A DNA stretch of 64,000 nt from Thermoanaerobaculia bacterium (GCA_018057705.1 JAGPDF010000004.1:12140-76139), one strand, 5' to 3'. Shown: positions 8,465 through 52,864, numbered from the stretch's first letter. Numbers and translations are program-made. Notes: generated by a model not told the origin, from the sequence alone.

Positions 8465-8812
8465 ATGGACAACGGATGCCTCTTCTGTCGCATCGTCGCC
8501 GGCGAGATTCCTGTCCGGCGGCTGTTCGAGGACGACGAGCTCATCGCCTTCGCGGACATCGCTCCGCAGGCCCCCGTGCACCTGCTGATCGTGCCGAAAC
8601 GCCATGTGCCGCATCTGTTCGCCTCCGGCGTGGACGACGCGCCGCTTCTCGGCCGGATGGTCACCACAGCCACCGATCTGGCGCGCCAGGCCGGGCTCGA
8701 AAGCGGCGGATTTCGTCTGGTCATGAACTGCCTCGCCGGCGCCGGGCAGTCGGTCTTCCATCTCCATCTCCACCTGCTCGGCGGCCGCCCGCTCGTCTGG
8801 CCTCCGGGATGA
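8465..8812 (+). CDS. HIT-family (histidine triad) nucleotide hydrolase
   Basis: 'MDNGCLFCRIVAGEIP...' and HxHxHxx motif 'SVFHLHLHLLGG'. Confidence 0.85.
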   Translation: MDNGCLFCRIVAGEIPVRRLFEDDELIAFADIAPQAPVHLLIVPKRHVPHLFASGVDDAPLLGRMVTTATDLARQAGLESGGFRLVMNCLAGAGQSVFHLHLHLLGGRPLVWPPG

Positions 8813-8819
8813 TCCGTCG

Positions 8820-28425: not shown

Positions 28426-29716
28426 CCGGCTGGGCCGGGCGCCGCGCCTGCGGCGCGCGCGGCTGCAGATCTCGCTCACCGCGGTCGCCTTTGCCACCGC
28501 GGCAGTGCGTCGGACCATCGACCTTGCGGTCGCTTCGACGCTCTCCCTGCTCACCGCGCCGCTCGCCCTCGCCTTCGCCCTCGGCGCGCGGCTTCGCCGA
28601 CGGCCGGCGCTCGCGCGCGAAACCTATCTCGGACGCTGGCAACAGCCGATCGATCTTGCCTGCCTCGTGTCCGGGGGTCCGCTCGCTCGCCTCCCCTGGC
28701 TGTGGGCGGTGGTACGCGGCGATCTTGCCCTGGTGGGACCGGCACCACTGCTCGAATCGCAGCGCGACGAGCTCGGCCCGGCCGACCTCCAGCGCTTCGC
28801 CGTGCGCCCCGGTCTCGCCAATCTCTTCGCGGTGCGGCGCTCGGCCAACATTGCCTTCGAGGGTCGCACCCGCGCCGACCTCGAGCAGGTCCATGCCGTC
28901 GGCCCAGCGGGCGAGATCGGCCTCCTCCTGCGCTCGGTGCCGGCCGCTCTCATCGGCGGCGGTCCGCTCGCCGCGCCGCGCGAGCTCACGGTGCTCGGGG
29001 TCCGGATCGACAATTGGACGATGCCCGAGGCCGTGGATTGGTTGCTCGCGCCTCGCGAAGGCGGAACGCGCCAGCTCGCCTTCGTCAATCCGGACTGCCT
29101 CAACAAGGCCTTCGAGCACGAGAGCTACCGCCGCGTGCTCGCGAGCTGCGACGTCGTGCTTCCGGACGGCATCGGCCTGCACTACGCCCTGCGGATGCGC
29201 GGCCTGGCCCTCGCCGCCAACGTCAACGGCACCGACCTGTTTCCCCGCCTCTGCGACGCCGCCTCCGGAGCCCGCGCTTCCATCTACTTCCTCGGCGCGC
29301 GACCGGGAGTGGTCGATGATCTGGCCGCGAAGGTCCGCGAGCGCTGGCCGGCCTTGCGCATCGCCGGCACGCGCCACGGGTTCTTCGCCCGCGACAGCGC
29401 GGAAGAGCGCGAAGTCATCGGCGCCATTCGCGCCGCGGCGCCCGATCTCCTCCTCGTCGCCTTCGGCGCACCGGCGCAGGAGGAGTGGCTCGCAGCTCAC
29501 CGGGCCGAGCTCGGTGTGGGAGCCATGCTCGGCGTCGGCGGACTGTTCGATTTCTATTCCGGACGCATCCGGCGAGCCCCCGCCTGGCTGCGCGAGCTCG
29601 GACTCGAGTGGACCTGGCGCCTCTTGCAGGAGCCGGGCCGGATGTGGCGGCGCTACGTGATCGGCAACCCTCTCTTCCTCTGGCGCGCCTTCCGGGAGAG
29701 CAGAGGAGTATCCTGA
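28394..29716 (+). CDS. Fusion protein: N-terminal degenerate sugar-transferase (PF02397) remnant plus C-terminal WecG/TagA/CpsF (GT26) glycosyltransferase
   Basis: N-terminus keeps the PF02397 ends ('RRTIDLAVASTLSLLTAPLALAFAL' ... 'LARLPWLWAVVRGDLALVGPAP') but the catalytic middle is missing. C-terminus 'LTVLGVRIDNWTMPEAVDWLL...FVNPDCLNKA...VLPDGIGL...IYFLGARPGV...LLLVAFGAPAQEEWL' is GT26. Confidence 0.75.
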   Translation: MSDGPNRTALDRLGRAPRLRRARLQISLTAVAFATAAVRRTIDLAVASTLSLLTAPLALAFALGARLRRRPALARETYLGRWQQPIDLACLVSGGPLARLPWLWAVVRGDLALVGPAPLLESQRDELGPADLQRFAVRPGLANLFAVRRSANIAFEGRTRADLEQVHAVGPAGEIGLLLRSVPAALIGGGPLAAPRELTVLGVRIDNWTMPEAVDWLLAPREGGTRQLAFVNPDCLNKAFEHESYRRVLASCDVVLPDGIGLHYALRMRGLALAANVNGTDLFPRLCDAASGARASIYFLGARPGVVDDLAAKVRERWPALRIAGTRHGFFARDSAEEREVIGAIRAAAPDLLLVAFGAPAQEEWLAAHRAELGVGAMLGVGGLFDFYSGRIRRAPAWLRELGLEWTWRLLQEPGRMWRRYVIGNPLFLWRAFRESRGVS

Positions 29717-41147: not shown

Positions 41148-42197
41148 CTATTCTTCGTCGAGCTCGATGTCGAGGCGGACTTCCTCGCCGGCACGCACCG
41201 AGAAGGTCTGTTCTTCGGACTCCCGGCCCGGTCGCACGACTTCGATCCGGTGTTCGCCGGGATCGACGATCAGGCCTGCCCGCAACCGCGCCAGCTCGCG
41301 CCCCGTGCCGAGGAAGCGGCCGTCGAGGTAGACCGAGGCGTCGTCCGGTTCGATCTCGAGCCGGAGGCTCCCCGGCTCGCCGCGCGCGTCGAGGCTGTCC
41401 GGCCCCGCCGCCACCCTCTCGTCGCCTTCCGGCGCACCCGTTCCGGACGACTCGTAGCGCCCGGCCTGGGCCTCCTCATAGGCACGCGCCTGCGCTTCGT
41501 TCTCACGGTCACGGCGCAGACGCTCCTCCCGGTTCGCGGTCGATTTCGAGACCAGGTCCTGGGGCAGCGTCTCCTGCCCGGGAACCATCGAGTCGTTGAC
41601 GTCGATGACCAGGCCACCGTAGACCGAGTACTGACGGGAGACGGTCTGGAAACCGGGGGCGAAGATCACCACGTCGTAGGTCCCCTTCTCCAGCCAGAGG
41701 AAGTCCGGGAAGCCGTCGAAATCGTCCGCGGTTCCGACCAGGTCGCCGTTGACGTAGACCTGGGCGCTCTCCGGGCTGACGTCGAGGTCGAGCGCACCGT
41801 GGGTCGCTCCGACGGCCGGGTAGACCGAGGTGTATCCCCAACCGCCGTAGGCGTAGGGCGCCCCGTACCAGCCGAGCCCGTAACCAGGGTAGCCGTAATA
41901 GCCGTAGCCGCCGTAGCCGCCGTAGTAGCCACGGTAGCCACCATAGTAGCCACGATAGCCGCCGTAGTAGCCACGATGGCCCCCGGAGTGGCCGCGATAG
42001 CCGTTGTAGTGACCGCCGGAGGAGCCGCCATGGCCGCGATAACCGCCCTGGCTCCCATGGCTCCCGGAGCCACCGCGGTTTCCGCCACCGCTCCCGCCCT
42101 GCCCCCCACCCGACTGTGCCACCAGCGCGGTCGCGGGCAACGTCAACGCCGCCGCGAGCGCCAACCTCAGGAAGATGCGTCCAGTTCGATTCCTCAT
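41148..42197 (-). CDS. Secreted Gly/Tyr/Arg/His-rich low-complexity protein with two PEGA domains
   Basis: Signal peptide 'MRNRTGRIFLRLALAAALTLPATALVAQ'; about 120-aa region 'GGYRGHGGSSGGHYNGYRGHSGGHRGYYGGYRGYYGGYRGYYGGYGGYGYYGYPGYG'; PEGA-like 'AQVYVNGDLVGT...GTYDVVIFAPGFQTVSRQYSV' and 'ASVYLDGRFLGT...GEHRIEVVRPGRESEEQTFSV'. Start ATG overlaps the upstream GT2 stop. Confidence 0.7.
   Translation of the reverse strand: MRNRTGRIFLRLALAAALTLPATALVAQSGGGQGGSGGGNRGGSGSHGSQGGYRGHGGSSGGHYNGYRGHSGGHRGYYGGYRGYYGGYRGYYGGYGGYGYYGYPGYGLGWYGAPYAYGGWGYTSVYPAVGATHGALDLDVSPESAQVYVNGDLVGTADDFDGFPDFLWLEKGTYDVVIFAPGFQTVSRQYSVYGGLVIDVNDSMVPGQETLPQDLVSKSTANREERLRRDRENEAQARAYEEAQAGRYESSGTGAPEGDERVAAGPDSLDARGEPGSLRLEIEPDDASVYLDGRFLGTGRELARLRAGLIVDPGEHRIEVVRPGRESEEQTFSVRAGEEVRLDIELDEE
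41922..41984 (-). repeat. In-frame 21-bp tandem repeat (x3) encoding YYGGYRG heptads inside the Gly/Tyr-rich gene
   Basis: Plus-strand units gtagtagccacg-gtagccacc / atagtagccacg-atagccgcc / gtagtagccacg-atggccccc at 41922, 41943 and 41964 (21-nt period). Confidence 0.7.
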
Positions 42198-43165
42198 GAC
42201 CCTACCCTTTCCATTGCGAACGGCCCCTCGCGCCAAGCTCGATGCAGTCCCCGGAGGTAGTGAACGCGAAGGGCCTCCTCCCACATTCCGGGCAGACTCA
42301 CGGGAAGGAACTGCAAAGCCCGGACCAGGCACTCCCTGCGGAACCGGTGCAGGCGCGAGGGGAGCGGACCGGGACCTTCCGGACCGAGCCCGAGAAAGCC
42401 CGCGAGCTCCGGATGTTTGCGCGCGAAGATCACGGCGCTGTAGCCGGCGCGCTCCTGGCGTGCGCAGAAACGCCGGAAATCGGTCGGATGATCGTGCAGG
42501 ACCCGCGCCCGCGGCTCGTAGACCAGCCGCAGCCCGCGCCGGAAGAGGCGGAAAGCGGCCTCGATGTCCTCCCACGCCGGATCGGGAAAACTCTCGTCGA
42601 ACGGCTCTTCCAGCAGGAGGTCGCGCGGCAACGACAGGTTCGAAGTGTAGAAGAAGTTGAACGGGACGTTTCGGGAATCGCCGATCAGGGCGTAGCCGAA
42701 CTGCGGCCCCTGCTCGTTGATGAACTCGAGGAACGGCGTGCGCCGCAGACGTGGGTGCCAGGCGGTGTAACCGATGACCGCCAGCCGGGCCGCGCCCGGA
42801 CTCGCCTGGTGTTCCGCCCAGTGCGCCGCGAGCCAGCCCGGCTCCGGCACCGTGTCGTCGCCGAGAAAGGCGACGATCGCGCCGGCTGCCGCGGCGACGC
42901 CGCGATTGCGCGCCGCGGCCGGACCCCTGTTCTGCTGCCGCAGCCGGCGCACCGGGTGCGCCGTCGCGCGCTCCCCCAGCCAGTCGAAGGTGCCGTCGGT
43001 CGAGCCGTCGTCCACGACCACGATCTCGAACGGCGGCGCTCCCTGCTGGTCGTCGAGCGCCTGCAGCACTTCGCCGAGAATGCGCCGCCGGTTGAAGGTC
43101 GGAATGACCACCGAGACATCGCAGGCCGGGCAGGCGGCGCTGGCCCGGCCGGCCCCGCCGGTCAC
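42194..43165 (-). CDS. GT2 glycosyltransferase
   Basis: 'VSVVIPTFNRRRILGEVLQAL...EIVVVDDGSTDGT...AAARNRGVAAA...FLGDDTVPEPGWL'. Confidence 0.8.
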   Translation of the reverse strand: MTGGAGRASAACPACDVSVVIPTFNRRRILGEVLQALDDQQGAPPFEIVVVDDGSTDGTFDWLGERATAHPVRRLRQQNRGPAAARNRGVAAAAGAIVAFLGDDTVPEPGWLAAHWAEHQASPGAARLAVIGYTAWHPRLRRTPFLEFINEQGPQFGYALIGDSRNVPFNFFYTSNLSLPRDLLLEEPFDESFPDPAWEDIEAAFRLFRRGLRLVYEPRARVLHDHPTDFRRFCARQERAGYSAVIFARKHPELAGFLGLGPEGPGPLPSRLHRFRRECLVRALQFLPVSLPGMWEEALRVHYLRGLHRAWREGPFAMERVGS

Positions 43166-44481
43166 CGCGCGTCCTCCCCGGGCAGCTCCATCACCTCGGA
43201 GAGGGTGGCGCGCGCCAGCACCGGGCTCGCCGGCAGGAGACTCGAGAATCCTGAGCTCGCAAACAGCGCCTCGTCGCCGAGATAGGTCGGAACCAGGTAG
43301 AGCGGGAAGCGCTCGCAGAGCTCGCGGTCGGAGCGCCGGCGTCGCTGCCGCGCGACCTCGCGTACTGCCGCGGCGTCGTCGAGCACGGCGAGAAAGAGGC
43401 TCATGGCGCGCAGGTGCGAGAGCGCCTGCGGATGCGAGAGCTCGAAGCCGCCGCCGGCGACGACGCGACGCAGCCGACGCGAGATCCGCCCCCAGACACG
43501 ACGGGTGAACTCGGCCGGCCCGAGCCGCCGGAGCTTGCCGAGCCAGGACGGATCCAGACCCCCGGCCGCGGCGCCCGCCGCGTCACGGCTCGTCACCGCG
43601 CCGGTGAACGGATCGCGCCGCAGAAGCTCCGCCGCCCCGGAGTTCCCCGCCACGACGATCGACTCGAGGCGCGCCAGGAAGGTCAGCAGGATCGCCGGCA
43701 TGAGCTGCGGCCAGAGCTCGTCGTCGAGGTTCTTGTAGGCGTTGAGCAGGGCGTTGCGCTCGAACAGCGAGCCACGCACGAACGGCCCGACACGATCGCT
43801 CGTGGCGGCCGAGCGGTGACGGACGACGGCTTCGCCACAGGCTTCGATGCGCTCGCCGCCGGCCCAGAGCCGCCAGCCGAGATCGACGTCCTCGAGATAG
43901 GCGAAGTACGCGGGGTCGAAACCGCCAGCCGCCAGAAAGGAGCGCCGCCGCACGAGCATGTTCGCGCCGCAGGCGAAGGCGAGCTCCTCGCCGCTCGCCG
44001 GCATCCTCGCTGTCGCGAAGGAGCGGCGAAAGTCGAGCTGAAAGGCGTGGCCGTCGAACGTCCGCAAGCCGTAGCCGAAGTCGAGCCGCTCGCCCTCCCA
44101 GTCGACGAGCCGCCCGCCGATGGCCGCGACATCCGGGGCGGCAGCGGCCGCCGCGTCGGCGAGCGCCGCGAGCCAATCGGGCGCGGGGTGGGTGTCGTTG
44201 TTGAGCAGGATCAGGAAGTCGCCTTCGGCGAGGTCGGCGAGCCGGTTGTTGGCGGCGGCGAAGCCGAGGTTCGTCGGACTCTCGACCAGCCGCACCCAGG
44301 GGTGGTGCACGCGCACCCAGTCCGCGGTGCCGTCGCGCGAGCCGTTGTCGAGCAGCAACAGTTCCCATTCGCAACCCGGATCGCGCTGCGCGGCGACCGC
44401 CGGCAGGCAGATCTCGAGGTGCCTCCGGCCGTTCCAGCTCGCGACGAGGATCGAGAGCCTGCGCTGGCTGGCGGACATCAC
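43162..44481 (-). CDS. GT2 glycosyltransferase (rhamnosyltransferase-like, with C-terminal extension)
   Basis: 'LSILVASWNGRRHLEICLPAV...LLLLDNGSRDGT...GFAAANNRLADLA...LILLNNDTHPAPDWL'. Confidence 0.8.
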   Translation of the reverse strand: MMSASQRRLSILVASWNGRRHLEICLPAVAAQRDPGCEWELLLLDNGSRDGTADWVRVHHPWVRLVESPTNLGFAAANNRLADLAEGDFLILLNNDTHPAPDWLAALADAAAAAAPDVAAIGGRLVDWEGERLDFGYGLRTFDGHAFQLDFRRSFATARMPASGEELAFACGANMLVRRRSFLAAGGFDPAYFAYLEDVDLGWRLWAGGERIEACGEAVVRHRSAATSDRVGPFVRGSLFERNALLNAYKNLDDELWPQLMPAILLTFLARLESIVVAGNSGAAELLRRDPFTGAVTSRDAAGAAAGGLDPSWLGKLRRLGPAEFTRRVWGRISRRLRRVVAGGGFELSHPQALSHLRAMSLFLAVLDDAAAVREVARQRRRRSDRELCERFPLYLVPTYLGDEALFASSGFSSLLPASPVLARATLSEVMELPGEDAR

Positions 44482-45384
44482 TCAGCCCGGCCCCTGCCCG
44501 CTGGCGCCGCCGCGAAGTCTCTCGACCCAGCGATGCAGCCGCCAGGCGCGCGTCCCTTCCATCTCGCGGATCAGGGCGTTCAGGCGGGTGATCTCGGCGC
44601 GGGCCCGCTGCAGATCGAGGGCGAGCTCCGGCACGCTCCCGCCCACCTCCGCGACCAGGGAGGCGAGGTCGCGCCCACGGAAATCTCCGGCCGCGAGGCA
44701 GCGATAGCCCTCGGCCAGCTTCACTTCCGGTGTGAGGGTGTGGGTGCGAAACTGACGCAGCCCCATTCCGGCCCGCAGATACGGGTGGCGCTCCTCCTGC
44801 GAGGCGTAGATCGCCATCGCCCGCTCGAGCTTCTCTTGACAGTCGCTGACGTCGACGAGCCGGTCGGGATATCCGGGATGGTTCACCTCGTAGAGCCAGA
44901 CTTCGAGCCCGCGCGCCGCCGCCGCGAGCGCGGCGTCTTCGCCAGCGGTGGAGAGAACATCGAAGAGCGCGGCGAAGGCGGCACGGTGATCCTCGGAGAC
45001 CTCGAGCGGCGACGGCACGAGGACGAGGCCGGGGCGCTCCGCGAGGAGGCGCTCGCGGATCGCCGCAGCAGCCTCGGCGCGTCCCGCGGCGAGCGCACCG
45101 TCGCGGATTCCGAGCACCGCCATGCCGGCGCAGCCGAAGAGACGGATCACCTCTTCCGCCTCTCGCCGGCGGCGTGCTGCGTAGGCCAGGCGATCGTCGA
45201 TCTCCTCGATTCCGCCGGAGCCGTCGGTGAGGAAGAGCACCTGCACCGGCGCGCCGGCCGCGGCCAATGCGAGGAGGAGACCGCCGCAGCCCAGCACTTC
45301 GTCGTCGAAGTGGGGCGCCAGGACGAGCGTCCGGACCGCGGCCGCGGCGCTCGTCCTGCCGGGGGGCTGCGGCGGGCGGATCAA
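44482..45384 (-). CDS. PIG-L/LmbE-family N-acetylglucosaminyl deacetylase
   Basis: 'TLVLAPHFDDEVLGCGGLLLAL...VLFLTDGS' (PHxDDE zinc motif). No in-frame ATG without a massive overlap; a TTG at 45384 forming a TTGA overlap with the upstream stop is proposed, so the start is uncertain. Confidence 0.65.
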   Translation of the reverse strand: MIRPPQPPGRTSAAAAVRTLVLAPHFDDEVLGCGGLLLALAAAGAPVQVLFLTDGSGGIEEIDDRLAYAARRRREAEEVIRLFGCAGMAVLGIRDGALAAGRAEAAAAIRERLLAERPGLVLVPSPLEVSEDHRAAFAALFDVLSTAGEDAALAAAARGLEVWLYEVNHPGYPDRLVDVSDCQEKLERAMAIYASQEERHPYLRAGMGLRQFRTHTLTPEVKLAEGYRCLAAGDFRGRDLASLVAEVGGSVPELALDLQRARAEITRLNALIREMEGTRAWRLHRWVERLRGGASGQGPG

Positions 45385-46112
45385 GGGGTCCGCAGGGGGC
45401 CGTTCGGCTCGCCACGATGGCGCCAACGGATCTTCAGAACGTCGGCCAGCATCCGCGCCGAGTCGCGCAGGGCGTGAACACTGGAAGCCGGAGAGTCGTG
45501 CCAGGCGACGCCGACCTCCCGGACGACGGCGCCGCGCCGCCGGGCGAGCCAGACGAGCTCGACGTCGAAGGCGAAGCGGTCGATCTGCATGTCGGCGAAC
45601 AGGGAGCGCGCGAGATCGCCGCGCAGCAGCTTGAAGCCGCACTGGGTGTCACGGATGCCGCCCACGGCGACGACCCGCACGACGACGTTGAACAACCGCC
45701 CCATGAGCTCGCGATAGGCCGGCTGCCGCCGGGTGATCTTCGAGTCGGCCACGCCGCGACTTCCCAGCACCAGACCCGCATCCGAGAGATGCGGACGCAG
45801 GCGCTCATACTCTTCGATCGGCGTGGAGAGGTCGGCGTCGCAGAGCAGGACTTCGGCGCCGGTGCTGGCGAGGACGCCGGCCCGCAGCGCTGCACCCTTG
45901 CCCTGGTTCTCCGCGAGCCGCAGCCAGCGGATCTCGCGGTACGCAGGCTCCAGTGCAAGCCTGCCGGTGCCGTCCGTGCTGCCGTCGTCGACCACCAGGA
46001 TCTCCGCGCCGCCCGGCAGGCTTCGGGCGTAGGCCAGGAGCCGATCGAGGGTCGGACCGATGCGTGCCGCCTCGTTGTAGGCGGGGACGACGATGGAGAG
46101 CTGCGGGTCCAT
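45381..46112 (-). CDS. GT2 polyprenyl-phosphate glycosyltransferase (DPM1/ArnC/GtrB-like)
   Basis: 'LSIVVPAYNEAARIGPTLDRLL...EILVVDDGSTDGT...[12 protein letters not shown]...RDTQCGFKLLRGDLA'; about 243 aa and soluble, typical of lipid-carrier sugar synthases. Confidence 0.85.
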   Translation of the reverse strand: MDPQLSIVVPAYNEAARIGPTLDRLLAYARSLPGGAEILVVDDGSTDGTGRLALEPAYREIRWLRLAENQGKGAALRAGVLASTGAEVLLCDADLSTPIEEYERLRPHLSDAGLVLGSRGVADSKITRRQPAYRELMGRLFNVVVRVVAVGGIRDTQCGFKLLRGDLARSLFADMQIDRFAFDVELVWLARRRGAVVREVGVAWHDSPASSVHALRDSARMLADVLKIRWRHRGEPNGPLRTP

Positions 46113-46174
46113 CGCTGGATTCTACGGCCTGCAGCACCTGGCGTGCAGGCTTCAGGCCCGCGGCGCAAAACGGT

Positions 46175-47152
46175 TCAGAAGTGATCCGAGTCGCCCATGG
46201 TCAGATAGAAACTCCCGAGCACCTGGGGCACGGTCACCCGCCGGTCGAAGGCGATGGCGCTCAGCCGGAGGACCGGCTCTGGAACCTGGGCGAAGCCCTC
46301 GCTGAGGAGCACGCTCGCCGCCTCGCCGTCGCCGCGCAGCCAGAGGTCGACGGCGGTTGCGCCCCGATCGCGGGCGCGCTCCGACACGGCGGCGACCAGG
46401 TCGGCGAGATCGGCCGGGCGCTCGCCGTCCCAGACGAGGTCGACCCAGTGCGCGACCTCGCCTCCGGAAGCGAGCACGGCCCAGGCCCGGGTCTCGCCAG
46501 CGCGACGCACCCCGATCTGAACGTAGCGCCCTCCCGGGCGGCGTTCGTAGCGCCAGCGGAACCAGGCGGCATCGCGCACCGTCGCGCACGGGTAGCGATC
46601 GCGGCTGCGGCGCCAGAGCCGGTCGGCGGCGTGGGCGTCGAAGCCTTCCGAGATCCAGCTCCGCGCCGGGAACCGGCTGCGGCCGGGCGCGCTCGCGCGC
46701 TGCAGGCGAACGAGCGCCGCCGGCTCGAAGTAGTGGCCGGTAACGGCGCCGGCACGTTGGTGGCGCTCACCGGGGAAGCCGTAGACGAAGCCGACCGGGG
46801 CAGCGCCATCGGCACCGGCGCATTCGGCGAGAAATCGCTCCATGGTGCTCTGGAACGGACCGCCGCGCGGGCCGAGCGCCCGCCGGCGGCGCGAGAAGAC
46901 GTCGACGATCTGCGCCGCCGGCATCGGCTCACCCCCCCAGACGGCGTCCACCGTGATGGCCGCATACTGGCAGGCGAGCTCACCGTCGCCGTCGAACGCC
47001 AGCAGGATGCGCGAGCCGCGCGGCGGCTCGAGAAACTTCCAGCGCCACTCGGCGAGGGAACGCTCGCTTCGAAAGACCTCCGCGAAAGCCCGCTGGATCG
47101 CGGACTCGTCCCCGGGGGCATAGGCACGCAGGCTGAAACCGTGGTCGCTCAT
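46175..47152 (-). CDS. GNAT-superfamily N-acetyltransferase (tandem/FemAB-like architecture)
   Basis: 'MSDHGFSLRAYAPGDESAIQRAFAEVF...' N-terminal GNAT-like start; a second acyl-CoA-binding-like half 'YVQIGVRRAGETRAWAVLASGGEVAHWVDLVWDG'. Assignment is by weak similarity only. Confidence 0.5.
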   Translation of the reverse strand: MSDHGFSLRAYAPGDESAIQRAFAEVFRSERSLAEWRWKFLEPPRGSRILLAFDGDGELACQYAAITVDAVWGGEPMPAAQIVDVFSRRRRALGPRGGPFQSTMERFLAECAGADGAAPVGFVYGFPGERHQRAGAVTGHYFEPAALVRLQRASAPGRSRFPARSWISEGFDAHAADRLWRRSRDRYPCATVRDAAWFRWRYERRPGGRYVQIGVRRAGETRAWAVLASGGEVAHWVDLVWDGERPADLADLVAAVSERARDRGATAVDLWLRGDGEAASVLLSEGFAQVPEPVLRLSAIAFDRRVTVPQVLGSFYLTMGDSDHF

Positions 47153-48270
47153 CGCGCCTGTGCGGTGTCGTCGCGGACGAGGTGCACCGGCGCCGACTCC
47201 CGGCCGCGGGCGTCGACGGCGCGAATCCAGAGCTCTCCTGGCGGAAGCCGGCGCCAGATCTCCTCCGGCATCTGCCAGTCGGGGGTGGGTCGCGCGAGCC
47301 GTTCGCCCGCCGCCGGAAACCCTCCGGCCGCGAGCGCCATCTCGACCCACGCGGTGTCGCCGGCCGCGAAAAGCCCGGGCAGTGCGAGCGCCGCCGAGGC
47401 GGCAGGCACCGCATCCGGCGCGCGACCGGCCGCACGACGAGGTGGCCTCGGAGCTGCGGCGAGCGCCTCGAGCAGCTGCGCGACGCCGGCGCCGAAGTGC
47501 CGGCGGCGGAAGATCTTCTCCGCTTCCGCGAACCAGGCGGTGGCGCTGGGCTCCCGCACGCTGCTCTGGGCGTAGAGATGCACCGCGTGCGCCGCGGGAA
47601 CGAAACGGGAGGCGAGGCCCGCGGCACGCAGACGAAGCAGCCAGTCGGTCTCCTCGAAGTAGAGGCGGAAGGCCTCGTCGAAAGGTCCCACCTTCGCCCA
47701 GGCGTCGCGCCGAAAGGCGATCAGGGCGCCCGAGAGAGACGACGAAACGAACGGCTCCGTCGCCTGCCAGTGGCGGCGGGCATGCCGGCGCCACGCCTTC
47801 CGCGCCGCGCCCGAGAGCAGGGGCGCCGCGGGAAAGCGGCGCGCCAGGGCGGCGCGCAGCTCCGCAGGGACAGATCTCGCCTCGGTCGGCGGCAGGAAGA
47901 CCCGCTGGTCGTGGTCCCAGTAGAACTGCGGCCCTGCCGCCGCGGTACCGCGTTCGAGCTCGGCGTGGAGGCTCGCGAGACATCCGGGGGCGACCAGGAC
48001 ATCTGGATTCATCGCGATGATGCGCGCGGCGGAGGTGCCTTCGACCCCGCAGCGCACGCCGCCGGCGTAGCCCAGGTTCGCTCCCGGATCGATCCGCCGC
48101 AACGGCAGCTCGTCCCAGGCCGAGCGGTCCGCCGGCTCGCTGCCATTGTCCACGACCACGATCTCGGCGCGCAGCCCGGAGATCTCGAGGTCCCTGCGCA
48201 GGGCCCGCACGGCCTCGGTGAGGAGCTCCGGGGTGCGGTAGTGCACCAGGATGATCGCGAGGTCGCTCAC
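47149..48270 (-). CDS. GT2 glycosyltransferase
   Basis: GTG start (GTGA overlap); 'LAIILVHYRTPELLTEAVRAL...EIVVVDNGSEP...GANLGYAGGVRCGV'. Confidence 0.75.
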   Translation of the reverse strand: MSDLAIILVHYRTPELLTEAVRALRRDLEISGLRAEIVVVDNGSEPADRSAWDELPLRRIDPGANLGYAGGVRCGVEGTSAARIIAMNPDVLVAPGCLASLHAELERGTAAAGPQFYWDHDQRVFLPPTEARSVPAELRAALARRFPAAPLLSGAARKAWRRHARRHWQATEPFVSSSLSGALIAFRRDAWAKVGPFDEAFRLYFEETDWLLRLRAAGLASRFVPAAHAVHLYAQSSVREPSATAWFAEAEKIFRRRHFGAGVAQLLEALAAAPRPPRRAAGRAPDAVPAASAALALPGLFAAGDTAWVEMALAAGGFPAAGERLARPTPDWQMPEEIWRRLPPGELWIRAVDARGRESAPVHLVRDDTAQAR

Positions 48271-49298
48271 GCGGAGGCCCGTTCTGCGCCTGCCGCCCAG
48301 GCGAGGGCCCGCTCGACCTCCACCGCGACACCCGCGGGTGAGAATCGCCGCGCCGCTGCGATGCCCTTGCGCCGTTGTGCGCGCCAGGCGGCCGGCGAGT
48401 CGAGGAGCGACTGCGCTCCCGCCGCGAAGGCACCGGCGTCGCCGGGCTCGACGAGCACCGCGCCGCCTTGCGCGGTCAGGAACTCGACGCCCGCAAGACG
48501 CGACGCCACGACCGGAACGCCGAGCTGCATCGCTTCGAGGAGCGGCAGACCGAGACCCTCGCCGGGGAGCGACGTGAAGAGCAGCAGGTCGCAGCCGGCC
48601 AGAGCTCGCAGGGCTTCGCCCGGGGCGACGGCCGTGAGATAGCGATCCGCCTGACCGAGCTCGCGCTCGGCTTCCGAACAGGGCAGGGCGGAGATCCGCA
48701 AGAGCCGCGCGGAGCGACCGGCGAGCCCGCCGAACGCTTCGAGGCCGGTGCGAATCCCCTTCACTTCCGCCTCGAAGATGCCGCAGAGTGCAACCCAGGG
48801 GAGGCGGCGCGGACCGAAGCGCAACGGGCGGCGCACTGTGAGATCGGCCGGCGCCGGCGCCAGCCGGGACTCGCGCCCGAACTGTTCCGCGAGCCGCCGG
48901 CCGAGGTGCGGCGCCACCACCAACGCGGGGAGCGGCCGGCGGTAGGCTTCGCGGATCGCCTCGCGCTGTGGCGCGAGGTGGACCAGGTCCTCCTCGAACC
49001 CCTGGCAGAAGTGCGCGACCGGTCCGGCCTGAAGCGCATCGGCCCGCGCCAGGGTCGTCCAAAAGGTGGCGACGATCAGATCCTGCGACGGCAGTCGCGC
49101 CTCTGGCTGCGAGAGGTCGAGGTAGCGCAGGGCTGGCCGGCTCCGGGAAGCGAACCAGGGGGCGAGCCAGGCCGGCCGCGGACCCTCCGCCGCGACCGTC
49201 AGCTGGTGGCCGCGATCGGCGAGGAGCCTGGCCTGCTGGGCGACGACCTTGGTCCCTCCGCCGAGCTCGGGCCGGTCCAGTAGATAGGTCACCCGCAT
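48267..49298 (-). CDS. GT4 glycosyltransferase
   Basis: 'MRVTYLLDRPELGGGTKVVAQQARLLADRGHQLTV...' N-domain; 'LLLFTSLPGEGLGLPLLEAMQLGVPVVASRLAGV'. Confidence 0.8.
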   Translation of the reverse strand: MRVTYLLDRPELGGGTKVVAQQARLLADRGHQLTVAAEGPRPAWLAPWFASRSRPALRYLDLSQPEARLPSQDLIVATFWTTLARADALQAGPVAHFCQGFEEDLVHLAPQREAIREAYRRPLPALVVAPHLGRRLAEQFGRESRLAPAPADLTVRRPLRFGPRRLPWVALCGIFEAEVKGIRTGLEAFGGLAGRSARLLRISALPCSEAERELGQADRYLTAVAPGEALRALAGCDLLLFTSLPGEGLGLPLLEAMQLGVPVVASRLAGVEFLTAQGGAVLVEPGDAGAFAAGAQSLLDSPAAWRAQRRKGIAAARRFSPAGVAVEVERALAWAAGAERASA

Positions 49299-49321: not shown

Positions 49322-50089
49322 CTAGAGCTCGTCCGCGAACGCCGGCCGCAGCCGGCGGAAGAGCGCCCAGCCCGTCCCGAGCACGGCGAGCGCGATCCCG
49401 ACGAGGGCAAAGGCGGCGCTCGCCTCCGGTGGCGCGCTGCCGAGGAGCACCGTCCGAAAGGCCTGGACGGTGGTCGCCATCGGATTGAGCGCAATCCAGG
49501 GGCGCAGGCTCTCCGGCACGAGGGTGAAGGGATAGACGATCGGGGTGAGATAGAACCAGGCCTGCATGCCGATGCCGATCGCCTGCGAGACGTCGCGGAA
49601 GAAGACCTGCAGGGCGGCCGCGGCCCAACCGAGCCCCAGCGCGAGGCAGATCTGCGCCGCGAGGCCGAAGAGCAGCCAGGGCAGGCGCCCCCAGGCGGGC
49701 TCCCCGGCGACCGCCTGCCAGACGGCGAAGATGGCGAGCGCGACGAACTGATGCACCAGCGCCGAAATCACGTTCGACACCACCAGCAGCTCGCTCGGGA
49801 AGCGCAGCTTCCGTACCAGGCCGGAATGGTCCACGACGGCGGTCGAGGCCCGCTGGACGGCCTCGGCGAAGCCCAGCCAGGGAACCAGGCCGGAGAAGAG
49901 AAAGACCGGGAAACTGGCCGTCCGCTCGCCGACGATCGGGACCTTCAGAATGACCGAAAAGACCACCCAGAGGAGGGCCAGCTGCCAGAGCGGGTGGACG
50001 AAAGCCCACAAAAAGCCGAACAACGAGCCGCGGTAACGGCTCTGCAGGTCGCGGCGGACCAGCTCTTTGAGGAGGAAACCGTGATGCAT
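49322..50089 (-). CDS. ABC-2 type polysaccharide/O-antigen export permease (Wzm/TagG-like)
   Basis: 'LLKELVRRDLQSRYRGSLFGFLWAFVHPLWQLALLWVVF' (ABC-2 permease signature), 6 TM helices. No adjacent ATP-binding partner gene. Confidence 0.75.
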   Translation of the reverse strand: MHHGFLLKELVRRDLQSRYRGSLFGFLWAFVHPLWQLALLWVVFSVILKVPIVGERTASFPVFLFSGLVPWLGFAEAVQRASTAVVDHSGLVRKLRFPSELLVVSNVISALVHQFVALAIFAVWQAVAGEPAWGRLPWLLFGLAAQICLALGLGWAAAALQVFFRDVSQAIGIGMQAWFYLTPIVYPFTLVPESLRPWIALNPMATTVQAFRTVLLGSAPPEASAAFALVGIALAVLGTGWALFRRLRPAFADEL

Positions 50090-50181: not shown

Positions 50182-50556
50182 ATGGGACAACTACCAGAGA
50201 TCCGCCAGGTCCAGCTCGTCGGGATGAAGATCCGTCAGCTCCGCAAGGAGCGGCATCTCACCCAGACGGAGCTCTCCGCGAAGCTGGGAATTCAGCAGTC
50301 CGACCTCTCGCGCATGGAAAAAGGCGAGTATCGGGTGAGTCTGGATACCCTCTTCAAGGTGCTCGCCGAGTTCCGCATCGGCGTCGGCGAGTTCTTCGAA
50401 GATGTCTCGCGGGAAACCGTCTCGCCGCGCGATCTGCGCCTGCTGAACGATTTCCACGCTCTCGATCCCACCGCGCAGGAGGAGATCGAAGGCTACATCC
50501 ACGAGCGCAAGCGGCCGGTTCGCAGCGCTCGCCGCGAACCGGTGCTCCTGAGCTAG
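50182..50556 (+). CDS. XRE-family (Cro/C1-type HTH) transcriptional regulator
   Basis: 'VGMKIRQLRKERHLTQTELSAKLGIQQSDLSRMEKGEYRVSLDTLFKVLAEF'. The ATG at 50182 is chosen because the ATG at 50158 lies inside the predicted -10 element; the longer ORF (50158) is an alternative. Confidence 0.7.
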   Translation: MGQLPEIRQVQLVGMKIRQLRKERHLTQTELSAKLGIQQSDLSRMEKGEYRVSLDTLFKVLAEFRIGVGEFFEDVSRETVSPRDLRLLNDFHALDPTAQEEIEGYIHERKRPVRSARREPVLLS

Positions 50557-50567
50557 GGACGCCGGGC

Positions 50568-51461
50568 GTGATCCGAAACGCAGCAGAGTTCCAGGCGGCC
50601 CGCGGCCGCTGGACGGAGGCCGTCGAAGCCGGGCGCCTGGACGAAGCGCTGGCGCTCGTCGAAGAGGCCTTGGCGTGGGCCGAGGTCGATGGCGACGAGC
50701 TGCTCCTCGACCGCGCGGTCTGCAACCGGGCGGCAATCGCCCTCGAGCTCGGCAGCGGGGCGGTGCACATCGCGTCGCTGCGCGCCCTGCTGATGCGCGC
50801 CGCGGACCCCGAAAACAGCTACCTCGCCGCCTACACCATCGCGCGTCACCACGAGCTTCAGAAGGAGCATCAGAAGGGTCTCTTCTACGCCCGGCTGGCG
50901 CGCGACCGCGCCGCCGCGCTCGACGAGAACCGGCAGGCTGCGAGCCTCAACTACATCGCGAACTTCCTCGTTGCCGAGAGCCGGTTCGAAGAGGCGATCG
51001 CCGCCTACGATGAGGCTCTCGCCCTGCTGCCGTCGATCGACTCGCTGCGCGGGGCGGTGATCGGCTACAACCTCGGCTACTGCAACGTGCTCACCGGCCG
51101 CAGCCGTGAGGGGCTGACGCTGCTCTACGCGAGCCTGCGTTCCCTGCTGCGCCGCGGCGCGCACGGTCACGCCATGAAAGCTCGACTCGATCTGGCCTTC
51201 GCCCTGCTCGAGACCGCGCACGCCCGCCCCGCCGGCCGCCATGCGGCACGCGCCCTGGCACTCGCCGAGAGCTTCGGGGACGCCGACGCGAAGAAGAACG
51301 CGCTCTACCTGCTCGGCGCGGCCGCGGTCGCGACCGGCGACCGGGTCGGCGCGCGCCGCCACTTCGAACGCCTGCAGCAGGGCTTCTACCCGGAAGCCGA
51401 CTACCTTCCCGAGCTCCTGCTGCACGTCGACGTGCGCGAACTGGTCAACCTCAAGGCCTGA
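50568..51461 (+). CDS. TPR-like all-helical repeat protein (hypothetical)
   Basis: Repeated helical A-x-x-x-A/L-rich units (e.g. 'AASLNYIANFLVAESRFEEAIAAYDEALALLP'); GTG start 12 nt after the XRE stop. Confidence 0.55.
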   Translation: MIRNAAEFQAARGRWTEAVEAGRLDEALALVEEALAWAEVDGDELLLDRAVCNRAAIALELGSGAVHIASLRALLMRAADPENSYLAAYTIARHHELQKEHQKGLFYARLARDRAAALDENRQAASLNYIANFLVAESRFEEAIAAYDEALALLPSIDSLRGAVIGYNLGYCNVLTGRSREGLTLLYASLRSLLRRGAHGHAMKARLDLAFALLETAHARPAGRHAARALALAESFGDADAKKNALYLLGAAAVATGDRVGARRHFERLQQGFYPEADYLPELLLHVDVRELVNLKA

Positions 51462-51472
51462 TCCTGCGACCG

Positions 51473-52864
51473 ATGAAGAACCTCCTCCGCGCCTTCGCTC
51501 TCTCGGCCCTCGTCGTCGCGACGCCGTCCTTCGCGACCGCGACGTCGACGCCGGTCGAGCTCGGCAGCGACGGCACGATCTACCGCCTCTGGACGGGGAC
51601 CTTCGGCGAGCTTTTCGGCCCTGACAACGCTGCCGTCCCCGGCGATCGGCCGATTCTCGCCCTGGATATCGTCCCGTCCGGGCAGCCTCTCGTTCGTCAT
51701 CTCGTCCCCGGCACCGAGGGCGCGGAGTCCGAAAGCTCTGCCGCGCTGCTTTTCGATCGCGCCTCCTCCTCGGTCCATATCGTCTGGAATTCGCGCACGG
51801 TCGCGAACCTGACGGTCTCGCGCCTTCACCTGCGCTCGCTCGCCTCCGAGGGCTGGACGGAGCTGATCGAGCTCTCCGGCGGCTCGCTGACCGACAAGTC
51901 GGCGCTGCGCCTGGCGCTCACCTCGGACGACTACGCAAAGCGCACCGACGGTGTCGAGACGCGTGTCGCGCGCCGGGTTCTGCATCTGGTCTGGGTCGAG
52001 ACGGTGGCGGACGTCCCGCACGCCTACTACTCTCCCGTCGTCTTCGCCGACGGCAGATATCTCGGCTGGAACCCGGTCGTCGCGCTGGACGATCTCGCGA
52101 CCCCGGACCCCAGCCTCGCGCCCGCGCCGCAGGTCTCGGTCGCGCTCCGCGCGGCGCCGACCCTCACCGCGACGCCCACCGGCAAAGTCTCGGCTTCGTT
52201 CGTCCACTCGCTGTCGCGGCATCTGGTCGCGGTGGACGTGCAGGCGCTCCCCGGCGAGCTCGGCGAGTTGGCGGAGTCCGCTCGCGGGCACATCGTCGAG
52301 CTGGCGGCGGTTCTCGGCAACGAAGACCGTACCGAGCTCGCCACCCTGGCGCGCGGCCACATCGTCGAACTGGCAGGCGACTTCCATCCCGCCGCCGCGG
52401 CCTACATCGGCGATCGGACCGGCGAGCTGCTGGCTTCGGCGGAAGCCTCGATCGACAGCACGGTACTCGGCGAGATGGCCCGCGGGCACATCGTCGAGCT
52501 CGGGCGGGAGATTCTCGCCAGCGGGCTGGCGAACCGCTGCGCCGAGGAGGAGCTCCTGCTCGAGATCCCGGCGCTCGACGCCACCGGTGGCGGAGCTCCT
52601 GGAGACCACGTCTTCAGCCACTTCTTCGCGATGCGTCGGGTGGCGCGCTGGGAGATCCCGTCCGACCTCGTCGCTCCGGATGCGCGGATCCTGGTCTCTC
52701 CCGATGGCATTCGCGCCACGATCGCCTGGACAGGCGAGGGGCACCTCTTCTATCGCGAAGTCGAGGCGGATGGCGAGTGGAGCCCGGTGCGGGACCTCGA
52801 CTTCTCGCAGATCGCCGCCGCCGATGCCTGGGAAGCCGTAGCGCGTCGCGCTTCGGGCCTCTGA
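51473..52864 (+). CDS. Secreted hypothetical protein with a triplicated E-[LM]-A-x-x-A-R-G-H-I-V-E-L motif
   Basis: Signal peptide 'MKNLLRAFALSALVVATPSFATA'; repeats 'LAESARGHIVELAA', 'LATLARGHIVELAG', 'LGEMARGHIVELGR'. No family recognised. Confidence 0.6.
   Translation: MKNLLRAFALSALVVATPSFATATSTPVELGSDGTIYRLWTGTFGELFGPDNAAVPGDRPILALDIVPSGQPLVRHLVPGTEGAESESSAALLFDRASSSVHIVWNSRTVANLTVSRLHLRSLASEGWTELIELSGGSLTDKSALRLALTSDDYAKRTDGVETRVARRVLHLVWVETVADVPHAYYSPVVFADGRYLGWNPVVALDDLATPDPSLAPAPQVSVALRAAPTLTATPTGKVSASFVHSLSRHLVAVDVQALPGELGELAESARGHIVELAAVLGNEDRTELATLARGHIVELAGDFHPAAAAYIGDRTGELLASAEASIDSTVLGEMARGHIVELGREILASGLANRCAEEELLLEIPALDATGGGAPGDHVFSHFFAMRRVARWEIPSDLVAPDARILVSPDGIRATIAWTGEGHLFYREVEADGEWSPVRDLDFSQIAAADAWEAVARRASGL
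52280..52504 (+). repeat. Three dispersed ~25-bp near-identical DNA repeats (cgcgggcacatcgtcgagctgg) encoding the ARGHIVEL motif
   Basis: Copies at about 52280-52305, 52348-52374 and 52478-52504. Confidence 0.6.

Follow-up and report, generated by a model that had tools for sequence, protein, structure and literature searches.

Outside the setting considered here, enzymes of the PIG-L family are known for their action on GlcNAc-PI and on soluble GlcNAc-conjugates, and the GlcNAc deacetylase of the glycopeptide pathway (teicoplanin/A40926) also belongs to the PIG-L/LmbE family. In the Arn, Flm, and Lgm systems, by contrast with PIG-L, the deacylases belong to the CE4 (ArnD) or YdjC (NaxD) families. 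In the GT-A/flippase/GT-C systems, represented by CsbB/GtcA/YfhO in Bacillus, Listeria, and Staphylococcus, as well as by GacI/J/K/L of the group A carbohydrate, the GT-A enzyme loads undecaprenyl phosphate with a sugar that a YfhO- or PMT_2-type GT-C then uses outside the membrane (PMC8035078).

The locus described here lies in a 64-kb stretch of DNA (the window) of an uncultured acidobacterium and includes, side by side, the genes of a small soluble GT2, a PIG-L-family deacetylase, and a tandem GNAT, placed within an operon of an ordinary-looking cell-surface sugar-polymer type. An earlier note on this DNA had read the three genes as a unit that edits a lipid-linked donor sugar. We tentatively prefer, at somewhat less than an even chance, to see them as a stretch of a surface-glycan operon in which each gene has a separate job.

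Organization of the operon

The features of the window are collected in Table 1. The three domain assignments made earlier (GT2, PIG-L, GNAT) are borne out by Pfam profile matches, with open reading frames located exactly where the earlier note had placed them. All three frames are co-directional and show coding-type GC3 values of 0.86–0.87. The order of the operon, namely Wzm, GT4, GT2, GNAT, small GT2, PIG-L, GT2, GT2, and PEGA protein, is conserved in Thermoanaerobaculia, and overlapping stops and starts join its genes (Wzm, GT4, the three conventional GT2s, and the PEGA protein). The stop of GT2a overlaps the start of the GNAT gene as ATGA (47149–47152), and 62 bp separate the latter from the small GT2.

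Table 1. Features of the operon and of the strain-specific island in the window.
Feature	Position	Strand	Assignment
Wzm-type ABC-2 permease, operon gene 1	49322-50089	minus	Pfam ABC2_membrane; NCBIfam Wzm/KpsM-like, below cut-off
GT4a glycosyltransferase, 343 aa	48267-49298	minus	Pfam Glyco_trans_1_4 + Glycos_transf_1; orthologues in L008, L010
GT2a, 373 aa, conventional GT-A transferase	47149-48270	minus	Pfam GT2; conserved partner of GNAT
Tandem GNAT, 325 aa	46175-47152	minus	Pfam Acetyltransf_9; Eis/NMT/GlcN-N-acetyltransferase-like
Small soluble GT2, 243 aa	45381-46112	minus	Pfam Glycos_transf_2; putative polyprenyl-phosphate glycosyltransferase of DPMS/GtrB/ArnC/ALG5 type
PIG-L/LmbE-family de-N-acetylase (predicted), 300 aa	44482-45384	minus	Pfam PIG-L; C-terminal helical tail; apparent PIG-L::GT2 fusion remnant
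GT2b, 439 aa, operon-core glycosyltransferase	43162-44481	minus	Pfam GT2 families
GT2c, 323 aa, EpsD-like, operon core	42194-43165	minus	Pfam GT2; NCBIfam EpsD 174.6 bits, below cut-off
Secreted PEGA-domain protein, Gly/Tyr-rich region, conserved last operon gene	41148-42197	minus	Pfam PEGA, two stretches
PMT_2-type GT-C, 552 aa	18868-20526	minus	Pfam PMT_2, E 7.9e-15; part of the island's Wzx/Wzy EPS cluster
Second DPM1-like small GT2, 259 aa	13200-13979	minus	Pfam GT2; inside the strain-specific island

Among relatives, the locus L007 has the same gene order as the window, and L008 and L010 carry an expanded version that includes Wzt (ABC_tran + Wzt_C), an ATPase present in relatives' versions of the operon and not found within the 64-kb window. 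Orthologues of GT2b, 55–61% identical, are present in L008, L010, L011, and L012, and GT2b also occurs in L025 and L030, both of which are without PIG-L and GNAT. Orthologues of GT2c were found in relatives' loci as well, and a PEGA gene stands at the end of the operon in L007, L008, L010, L015, L024, L025, L030, and L093. Neither a flippase (GtrA- or Wzx-type) nor a GT-C was found in the operon of the window, which leaves the ArnC/ArnD/ArnT-like set of polyprenyl-phosphate GT2, deacylase, flippase, and GT-C incomplete there; since Wzt is missing too, the pathway cannot be closed from 64 kb. All versions of the operon examined were devoid of an initiating phosphoglycosyl transferase. No NCBIfam equivalog model scored above its cut-off, so that none of them assigns a substrate.

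The sole GT-C in the window, which the earlier note had proposed as the acceptor transferase, is located in a 29.3-kb insertion (11800–41147). Six further assemblies of the species (L001–L006), as well as distant relatives, lack this insertion at the locus. This island carries its own DPM1-like GT2, 43% identical to the small GT2 of the operon over 242 aa and matching PfDPMS with an E value of 2.6e-21 (residues 8–224 covered), which is the likely donor synthase for the island GT-C. The proposed pairing of that GT-C with the small GT2 of the operon is therefore not supported.

Small soluble GT2

The small GT2 matches Pfam Glycos_transf_2 (E 3e-25) and has a GT-A fold with the DXD metal/nucleotide motif. 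No TM segment was found in it, with the maximum 19-residue hydropathy of 1.4 remaining below the TM threshold, and the window operon includes no small membrane partner protein. A TM anchor is not universal in the family: human DPM1 is also devoid of TM helices, and a TM-less truncation of PfDPMS is still targeted to the membrane (PMC5526996). These features point to a soluble, DPM1/DPMS-like protein, as had been proposed, and not to a membrane-integral processive synthase.

The arginine that binds the acceptor phosphate is R122 in GtrB, R117 in PfDPMS, and R147 in human DPM1 (PMC4728340, PMC5526996). In the small GT2, the nearly invariant R119 (in 'GSR') aligns with R117 of PfDPMS (chain numbering offset 22), and the invariant R134 aligns with R131 of PfDPMS, a ligand of the Dol-P phosphate. 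The position of PfDPMS Ser135 is taken by the invariant Gly138; GtrB is likewise without clear counterparts. Two amphipathic interface helices are predicted beside the GT-A core. The A-loop arginine (R200 in GtrB, R202 in PfDPMS) seems, judged by eye, to have no counterpart where it would be expected in the segment E199-V-G-V-A-W-H-D-S-P, with the sequence alignments ending at residue 170. The best matches in sequence and fold include ArnC, and public annotation describes the protein as ALG5-like.

The gene immediately after the small GT2 encodes a YfhO-family protein in L019, L021, L023, L027, L029, L032, and L040, and PMT_2 or TMEM260-like proteins adjoin its homologues in other phyla. GT-C neighbours of these homologues are present in at least 15 of the 80 loci, and reading frames with eight or more predicted TM segments, found in 30 of the 80, are about three times as frequent within 3 kb of the small GT2 (0.76 vs 0.26 per 10 kb). 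This family-wide adjacency agrees with the known GT-A/flippase/GT-C systems (PMC8035078) and supports a role in supplying polyprenyl-phosphate sugar donors, so that the lipid-carrier part of the earlier proposal gains in weight.

PIG-L deacetylase

The PIG-L protein scores 79.6 bits against Pfam PF02585 (E 3.8e-22, gathering score 28.2), and its relatives in the PDB are TT1542, diacetylchitobiose deacetylases (Dac), and BshB1. Translation starts at a TTG (45384) that overlaps the stop of the small GT2 as CCCC-TTGA-TCC; the only other in-frame start upstream of the conserved PPG...APHFDDE N terminus is a TTG located 14 codons further up, and homologues begin at the same position as the former. 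Thus, the overlapping TTG start suggested previously holds, but the expectation that gene callers might miss it does not, since public gene calls already use it and record the 300-aa product on 22 contigs.

The His/Asp/His metal ligands (H25, D28, and H133) and the general-base Asp (D27) are kept, align with the AHPDD/DH motifs of TT1542, and are at least 90% conserved among 38 homologues; D132 is conserved as well. Neither a loss of these ligands nor a membrane-integral GT2, the two findings that the earlier note named as refuting its proposal, is seen. At the start of the HxDH motif, Ser130 (S-E-D-H) stands in place of the His, a residue of the MshB His144 type. This position is Ser or Thr throughout the Thermoanaerobaculia clade and His in distant homologues, TT1542, and Dac, so that full deacetylase activity is assumed.

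In relatives (L008, L010–L012, L014–L016, L024, L027, and L040), PIG-L and a conventional GT2 form one fused protein of 577–914 aa, whose C-terminal tail matches that of the window PIG-L. The latter appears to descend from such a PIG-L::GT2 fusion by deletion of the conventional GT2 domain in the window lineage. In sister loci, a membrane enzyme of the sulfatase/alkaline-phosphatase superfamily adjoins the fusion gene.

Tandem GNAT

Two GNAT folds are present in one chain. The profile search returned Acetyltransf_9 (30.4 bits vs a cut-off of 25, E 4.5e-7) in place of the Acetyltransf_6 named in the earlier note. Eis and two GlcN N-acetyltransferases are among the structural neighbours, although the third domain of Eis is absent. 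The C terminus is strictly conserved: in all 53 family members, the chain runs exactly two residues beyond the invariant D323 (T-M-G-D-x-D-x-hydrophobic). In Eis, the mechanism involves the C-terminal carboxylate of Phe402 (PMC8556138), and the terminus of the tandem GNAT would fit a similar active-site carboxylate. Residues 88–98, R-R-R-R-A-L-G-P-R-G-G (family consensus RRRxxLxRxG), follow a β-strand formed by residues 75–87 and are a candidate for the loop that binds the acyl-CoA pyrophosphate in the active domain (pattern R/Q-x-x-G-x-G/A). GT2a is found directly upstream of GNAT in the window and in L007, L008, L010, L009, L093, L094, and L095.

Possible functions of the three genes

In the reading that we favour, a surface glycan would be assembled at the cytoplasmic face of the membrane and exported by an ABC-2 (Wzm/Wzt-type) route; the folds, catalytic residues, gene order, and co-occurrence patterns behind it are direct observations. 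The small GT2, as a polyprenyl-phosphate sugar synthase, would load one sugar on a lipid carrier for use outside the membrane by a GT-C, of the YfhO type in sister lineages; in the window organism, this partner would be encoded outside the operon and would not be the PMT_2 protein of the island. PIG-L, derived from a bifunctional PIG-L::GT2 enzyme, would act as a metal-dependent de-N-acetylase on a lipid-linked intermediate, freeing the amine of the GlcNAc-type residue at its end. The tandem GNAT may N-acylate amino sugars with acyl-CoA as the donor, through an active site like that of Eis/NMT (C-terminal carboxylate), working with GT2a and probably re-acylating the amine freed by PIG-L. In favour of a link between these two enzymes, PIG-L and GNAT occur together in 11 scanned loci, and no PIG-L of the window type was found without GNAT among the relatives scanned. 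We infer what each enzyme acts on, how the steps follow one another, which acyl group is added, and which polymer is the acceptor.

The main alternative is the scheme of the earlier note, in which polyprenyl-P-HexNAc formed by the small GT2 is de-N-acetylated by PIG-L while on the carrier, GNAT re-acylates the amine with another acyl group, and a GT-C transfers the product after it has been flipped. We regard this as unlikely. Fold and residues mark the small GT2 as a polyprenyl-phosphate transferase, and in sister lineages bearing PIG-L and GNAT (L021, L027, L029, and L040) its orthologues pair with a GT-C of the YfhO type. The canonical substrate of PIG-L, GlcNAc-PI, is itself a lipid-phospho-linked GlcNAc, and AglK, an ALG5-like archaeal enzyme, makes Dol-P-GlcNAc, both of which speak for the scheme. 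Against it, GNAT is constantly linked to the upstream GT2a, even where PIG-L and the small GT2 are both absent (L009, L094, and L095); one locus (L093) has GT2a-GNAT-PIG-L-PEGA with the small GT2 missing; and L025, L030, and all other phyla sampled (about 60 loci) have the small GT2 but neither PIG-L nor GNAT. Furthermore, PIG-L was ancestrally fused to a conventional GT2, with YfhO and a sulfatase-family gene separating it from the small GT2 in full-length loci, the only GT-C named for the scheme belongs to the island, a flippase is absent from the window operon, and sources name the small GT2 a glucosyltransferase. To our knowledge, the characterized deacylases of Und-P-aminosugars come from the CE4 and YdjC families and not from PIG-L. 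Across relatives, the three genes thus do not behave as one unit, and this split distribution leaves them not tied into a single three-step pathway. The earlier proposal finds partial support: its domain calls and a role at the lipid carrier stand, whereas the editing of a donor sugar in three steps and the choice of GT-C are not supported.

Several observations run against our favoured reading. Wherever GNAT and the small GT2 are both present, the distance between them is, with few exceptions, no more than about 100 bp, and in the window lineage the PIG-L domain has been kept intact, overlapping the stop of the small GT2, while its fused GT2 domain was lost; these two facts fit editing on the carrier equally well. 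The lack of a phosphoglycosyl transferase in all versions of the operon leaves room for the small GT2 as a primer.

A novel form of carrier-level editing is likewise a doubtful, though not negligible, prospect. A TM-less ALG5/DPMS-like synthase would make polyprenyl-P-HexNAc, PIG-L would de-N-acetylate it, and an Eis/NMT-like GNAT would add a different, possibly long, acyl group, with the product either handed to a GT-C of the YfhO type or built up into a glycan linked to polyprenyl monophosphate. If true, this would yield a lipid-linked N-acyl-aminosugar, and the extension option would amount to a bacterial GPI-like or archaeal-like route.

Less probable still is an archaeal AglK/AglJ-like, GPI-like scheme, in which the small GT2 would use polyprenyl monophosphate as the foundation of the glycan, PIG-L and the GT2 ancestrally fused to it would deacetylate the first GlcNAc and add the next sugar, and other GT2 and GT4 enzymes would extend the chain; Wzm/Wzt would export the polyprenyl-P-oligosaccharide, and a GT-C would transfer it, possibly to the PEGA protein. 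The small GT2 is present in every core version of the operon (Wzm, small GT2, GT4, GT2b, GT2c, and PEGA), which would be consistent with priming where a phosphoglycosyl transferase is missing, but ABC-transporter pathways usually encode the initiating WecA-type enzyme elsewhere, so that its absence says little. NCBIfam similarities of the small GT2 to AglJ, as well as of GT2b and GT2c to the glucosyl-dolichyl-phosphate glucuronosyltransferase AglG, are weak and fall far below the cut-offs. The PIG-L::GT2 fusion would channel deacetylated lipid-linked GlcN to the next transferase, and in GPI synthesis de-N-acetylation indeed precedes mannosylation, yet the frequent adjacency of the small-GT2 family to GT-C is a signature of monosaccharide donor synthases, and we know of no bacterial precedent for oligosaccharides primed on polyprenyl monophosphate.

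Finally, a mycothiol/bacillithiol-like small-molecule pathway, in which a glycosyltransferase makes a GlcNAc-aglycone, PIG-L deacetylates it, and the tandem GNAT finishes it as MshD would, is very improbable: BshB1 is the best NCBIfam match of PIG-L and the C terminus of GT4a weakly resembles BshA and MshA, but the scores are far below the cut-offs (64 bits vs 182.5 for BshB1), the ligase MshC or BshC is absent, and the genes are embedded in a Wzm/Wzt glycan operon that also encodes a secreted protein and has five glycosyltransferases.

Comparison with known systems

The small GT2 resembles PfDPMS, human DPM1, and ALG5/AglK in the DXD motif, the equivalent of Arg117, a candidate equivalent of Arg131, and the two predicted interface helices, and is TM-less like human DPM1. 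It differs from PfDPMS in the invariant Gly in place of Ser135, and from these enzymes in general in being bacterial and encoded in a polysaccharide operon, with no DPM2/3-like partner identified.

The ArnC/ArnD/ArnT (L-Ara4N on lipid A), Francisella FlmF2/NaxD/FlmK, and Bordetella LgmABC systems share with the locus the logic of a polyprenyl-phosphate GT2 that forms an Und-P-(N-acyl)aminosugar, a deacylase at the cytoplasmic face, and transfer by a GT-C. However, none of them includes a re-acylation step, ArnC has TM helices whereas the small GT2 has none, and their operons include the GT-C and flippase genes that the window operon lacks. The sole Lgm/Flm-like arrangement seen, PMT_2-YdjC-GT2, is in L085, where PIG-L is a separate PEMT-fused protein.

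In the NodC/NodB/NodA and teicoplanin/A40926 pathways, GlcNAc is installed and deacetylated and the amine receives a different acyl group, which recalls the pairing of PIG-L with GNAT. Their substrates are soluble secondary-metabolite scaffolds or chito-oligosaccharides rather than lipid-linked envelope glycans; in addition, NodB is a CE4 enzyme and NodA is not a GNAT.

Sister loci in which YfhO directly follows the small GT2, accompanied by the sulfatase-family membrane enzyme, are similar to the CsbB/GtcA/YfhO and Gac systems; that enzyme recalls GacH of the streptococcal cluster. The streptococcal clusters also provide an example of decoration within an ABC-transporter-dependent polysaccharide operon. 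The window locus differs in the lack of TM helices in its GT2 and of a small membrane partner, in having no GtrA-/Wzx-type flippase or GT-C in its operon, in the presence of the PIG-L deacetylase and tandem GNAT, found in none of these systems, and in its acidobacterial, not Gram-positive, host.

In the early steps of GPI synthesis (PIG-A, PIG-L, and the later EtN-P transferases), a PIG-L-family enzyme also acts at the cytoplasmic face on lipid-phospho-linked GlcNAc before further glycosylation, and the sulfatase/alkaline-phosphatase-superfamily enzyme beside PIG-L::GT2 in sister loci extends the likeness. The carrier, though, would be polyprenyl phosphate instead of phosphatidylinositol, the first transferase is a GT2 in the window and a GT4 (PIG-A) in GPI synthesis, and there is no transamidase; the resemblance between the two is one of logic only.

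Operon organization and gene models

The G+C content of the window is ~70% and many of its long ORFs are spurious; the coding frame of each region was chosen by third-position G+C. The minus-strand operon, spanning 50089 to 41148, comprises nine genes, the junctions of which are mostly four-base overlaps or direct abutments. The PIG-L gene indeed starts, as the earlier note had suggested, with a TTG codon at 45384 that forms a TTGA overlap with the stop of the small GT2 gene, and its homologues start at the same position. The concern that gene callers may miss this start proved unnecessary, since an identical 300-aa product is encoded on 22 contigs, including those of Thermoanaerobaculia assembly GCA_964269585.1 and of wastewater metagenomes, and the start is already present in public calls. 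All NCBIfam matches of the nine operon proteins are far under the equivalog cut-offs, making transfer of function to them impossible.

Features of the operon, its upstream flank, and the island
Feature	Position	Strand	Length
Wzm-type ABC-2 permease	49322-50089	-	255 aa
GT4a	48267-49298	-	343 aa
GT2a	47149-48270	-	373 aa
Tandem GNAT	46175-47152	-	325 aa
Small GT2	45381-46112	-	243 aa
PIG-L	44482-45384	-	300 aa
GT2b	43162-44481	-	439 aa
GT2c	42194-43165	-	323 aa
Secreted PEGA-domain protein	41148-42197	-	349 aa
Divergent HTH/TPR/463-aa trio	50182-52864	+	
Island	11800-41147		29.3 kb
Island DPM1-like small GT2	13200-13979	-	
Island PMT_2 GT-C	18868-20526	-	
Island Bac_transf (partial)-WecG/TagA protein	28394-29716	+	440 aa

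No Wzt ATPase was found in the 64-kb window or in the closest relatives (L001-L007, of which L001-L006 are conspecific assemblies), and Wzt is present in the operon of L008, L010, L014, L015, L024, L029, and L093. In the window lineage, the gene for the ATPase serving Wzm lies elsewhere, or else export is impaired. In all relatives the operon ends with the conserved PEGA gene, the product of which, with a signal-peptide-like N terminus and an extended repeat region rich in Gly, Tyr, and Arg (GGYRGYYGG…), could be a glycosylation target or an envelope scaffold. The divergent trio upstream of the operon is conserved and encodes an XRE-type HTH protein, a TPR protein, and a protein of 463 aa that matches no Pfam family; it is retained even in distant loci with only GT2a and GNAT (L009, L094, and L095) and may be a dedicated regulator set. 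In GCA_964269585.1 (L001), the DNA of which is 99.7% identical to that of the window, the frames of GNAT (134 aa, 8234-9210) and GT2c (218 aa, 12534-13190) are both truncated, which reflects indels in the assembly or, alternatively, pseudogenes of that strain.

Architecture of the operon in relatives

The gene order of the window operon is shared by L007, a relative with 61% identity in GNAT. A larger version of the operon is found in L008 and L010, more distant Thermoanaerobaculia, in the order Wzm, FG-GAP protein, Wzt, GT4a, GT2a, GNAT, small GT2, PIG-L::GT2, GT4, GT2b, GT2c, and PEGA, with a PIG-L::GT2 fusion of 577-584 aa. Among the variations seen in other loci (L011, L012, L014-L017, L021, L027, L029, and L040) are a lengthened GNAT that adjoins the small GT2, in many cases from the opposite strand, and a sulfatase-family membrane enzyme. 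Six Pfam-annotated contexts had pointed to the absence of any GT-C near the module, a view overturned when the 80 scanned loci proved to include seven related ones in which the small GT2 is immediately followed by a YfhO-family GT-C.

In L011, L012, L017, L018, L021, and L040, a sulfatase-family protein of 737-1028 aa (LtaS/EptA-like superfamily) is flanked by PIG-L::GT2 on one side and by the small GT2 or YfhO on the other. In database protein P0291, PIG-L and sulfatase domains are part of one chain.

Small GT2, PIG-L, and tandem GNAT

The closest solved relatives of the small GT2 by sequence are ArnC, the archaeal Dol-P-Man synthase, and GtrB. Its D92-A-D94 and E14 align with the DXD motif and Glu12 of PfDPMS, and R119 and R134 with the Dol-P phosphate ligands Arg117 and Arg131, whereas the position of Ser135 is taken by an invariant Gly. 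The two interface helices have their counterparts in helices 132-148 and 214-231. No TM segment was found in the small GT2, as is also the case for human DPM1. These equivalent residues and interface helices mark the small GT2, at the level of sequence, as a polyprenyl-phosphate glycosyltransferase by every tested feature other than a membrane anchor. Its name at JGI and NCBI is ALG5-like Dol-P-glucosyltransferase; it reaches no NCBIfam equivalog cut-off.

The active site of PIG-L retains H25, D27, D28, D132, and H133, and the loss of His/Asp ligands that would have spoken against the proposal of the earlier note is thus not seen. The first His of the H-x-D-H motif is replaced by Ser130 in the window PIG-L, and by Ser or Thr across the Thermoanaerobaculia clade, whereas distant homologues and solved structures keep it. 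The tail of the window protein (…RLNALIREMEGTRAWR…) is that of the PIG-L::GT2 fusion proteins, which indicates that the window lineage deleted the internal GT2 domain of the fusion together with the GT4 that follows. Simple fission of the fusion into PIG-L and GT2b was ruled out, since orthology shows GT2b to be a different gene.

Comparison of GNAT with the PDB by sequence yielded chance matches only, so that a fold search was needed; the predicted fold consists of two GNAT domains (pLDDT 93). The C terminus has the form T-M-G-D-x-D-x-(hydrophobic), and all 53 of 53 aligned members end exactly two residues past the invariant Asp. Such a fixed terminus suggests that the C-terminal carboxylate is catalytic, in the manner of Eis and NMT, the mechanism being described for Eis (PMC8556138). 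The family is rare, with ~80 sequences in 5.8 billion.

Co-occurrence across genomes

When the small-GT2 alignment was used to scan 185,579 species genomes, 80 loci from many phyla, including archaea, were obtained. Simple ORF calling missed real genes in high-GC loci and was set aside, and neighboring genes were scored by HMM searches of six-frame stop-to-stop translations; strict all-against-all clustering of the neighboring ORFs gave small clusters only. PIG-L is present in 12 of the 80 loci, GNAT in 15, and both in 11, and all loci with either one, except L085, belong to the closest Thermoanaerobaculia and Holophagales relatives. No case of this type of PIG-L without GNAT was found among the relatives scanned.

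Three patterns separate the genes. L025 and L030 contain Wzm, small GT2, GT4, GT2b, GT2c, and PEGA and lack GT4a, GT2a, GNAT, and PIG-L; L009, L094, and L095 carry the GT2a-GNAT pair with neither small GT2 nor PIG-L; and L093 has the arrangement GT2a-GNAT-PIG-L-PEGA with no small GT2. As judged from gene content, the small GT2 is thus a core gene, working independently of PIG-L and GNAT, GT2a-GNAT is the tightest pair, and PIG-L accompanies GNAT as well as a conventional GT2 domain.

Across phyla, ORFs with at least eight predicted TM segments are enriched near the small GT2 (0.76 vs 0.26 per 10 kb), where they are found within 3 kb in 30 of the 80 loci. Those tested are mostly GT-Cs of the PMT_2, TMEM260-like, or YfhO type, although not all of them are, since a lactate permease, a P-type ATPase, and a K+ transporter were also among them, and several had no Pfam match. 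By analogy, the adjacency of the small-GT2 family to GT-Cs corresponds to the known signature of GT-A/flippase/GT-C glycosylation systems (PMC8035078).

In region 4781-13878 of L085, an unclassified bacterium, a small-GT2 homologue is convergent to an operon of PMT_2 GT-C, YdjC deacetylase, and GT2 that is Lgm/Flm-like. A 661-aa protein encoded nearby has a PEMT/ICMT-type membrane methyltransferase domain fused to a PIG-L domain.

The island and its GT-C

In six further assemblies of this species, the match to the window runs from 55384 down to 41148 and resumes at 11799, and in distant relatives the PEGA gene directly adjoins the MGMT and SLT genes; the intervening 29.3 kb are thus, by genome comparison, an insertion. 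It is placed exactly between the stops of the PEGA and MGMT genes, and brief inspection of its borders revealed neither repeats nor an integrase. Within the island is a complete EPS cluster of the Wzx/Wzy/Wza/Wzc type (Bac_transf, GT2, three GT4, AAA_22 ATPase, PMT_2 GT-C, and Wzy_C), together with regulators of the STAS and SpoIIE/response-regulator types, a hybrid histidine kinase, a glycogen phosphorylase, and a PHP protein. In one further island protein, a complete WecG/TagA-type glycosyltransferase domain is joined to a partial Bac_transf region.

The island also encodes another DPM1-like small GT2, which shares 43% identity with the operon enzyme, matches PfDPMS with E 2.6e-21, and probably forms with the PMT_2 GT-C a complete pair of donor synthase and GT-C. 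The GT-C at 18868-20526, proposed earlier as the acceptor transferase, thus probably has a donor synthase of its own and would not be the natural partner of the operon GT2.

Discussion

The best-supported reading, which we advance tentatively, is a division of labor within one ABC-transporter-dependent surface-glycan operon. The small GT2 would make a polyprenyl-P-sugar, which a GT-C encoded elsewhere, of the YfhO type in relatives, would use for decoration on the extracytoplasmic side, and PIG-L and GNAT would edit the N-acyl group on a hexosamine added by the conventional transferases.

The single pathway of the earlier note, in which the sugar is edited on the carrier lipid, seems rather unlikely. 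GNAT nearly always adjoins the small GT2, and the PIG-L domain, overlapping the stop of that gene, was retained after the loss of its own GT2 domain, as such a pathway would have it; L093, L025, L030, and the loci with only GT2a and GNAT nevertheless argue against an obligatory link. Searches of the available literature returned nothing relevant on any PIG-L acting on polyprenyl-linked sugars, nor on the mycobacterial deacetylase invoked in support. Less probable still is the building of the glycan on polyprenyl monophosphate as a primer, in the archaeal or GPI manner, which would account for the absence of any phosphoglycosyl transferase and for which we know of no bacterial precedent. A small-molecule pathway of the mycothiol/bacillithiol type is scarcely credible; its context and the scores both led to its rejection.

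Thermoanaerobaculia, a class of uncultured Acidobacteriota, are abundant in wastewater, soils, and sediments; we know of no information on their envelope glycans. Since the operon is conserved across the class, beside housekeeping genes, its product is probably a major surface structure. From the combination of a carrier-lipid sugar synthase, PIG-L, and the rare tandem GNAT, we predict a glycan with an unusual N-acylated or free-amine hexosamine. If PIG-L and GNAT act on the carrier-linked sugar, the operon would represent a new version of the Arn/Flm/Lgm logic in which a PIG-L enzyme is used and re-acylation is added; if they act on the chain, it would be an ordinary tailoring module. The practical yield is a corrected gene model, a corrected GT-C pairing, and a set of loci separating the three functions.

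Each enzyme is a new member of an established family, and the novelty lies in their combination: a polyprenyl-phosphate GT2, a PIG-L for which fusion to a GT2 is frequent, and the rare tandem GNAT have not been described together in a glycan operon of the ABC type from an uncultured class. The combination is a variant of known systems of glycan tailoring and carrier-lipid glycosylation, to which relatives add YfhO and a sulfatase-family enzyme.
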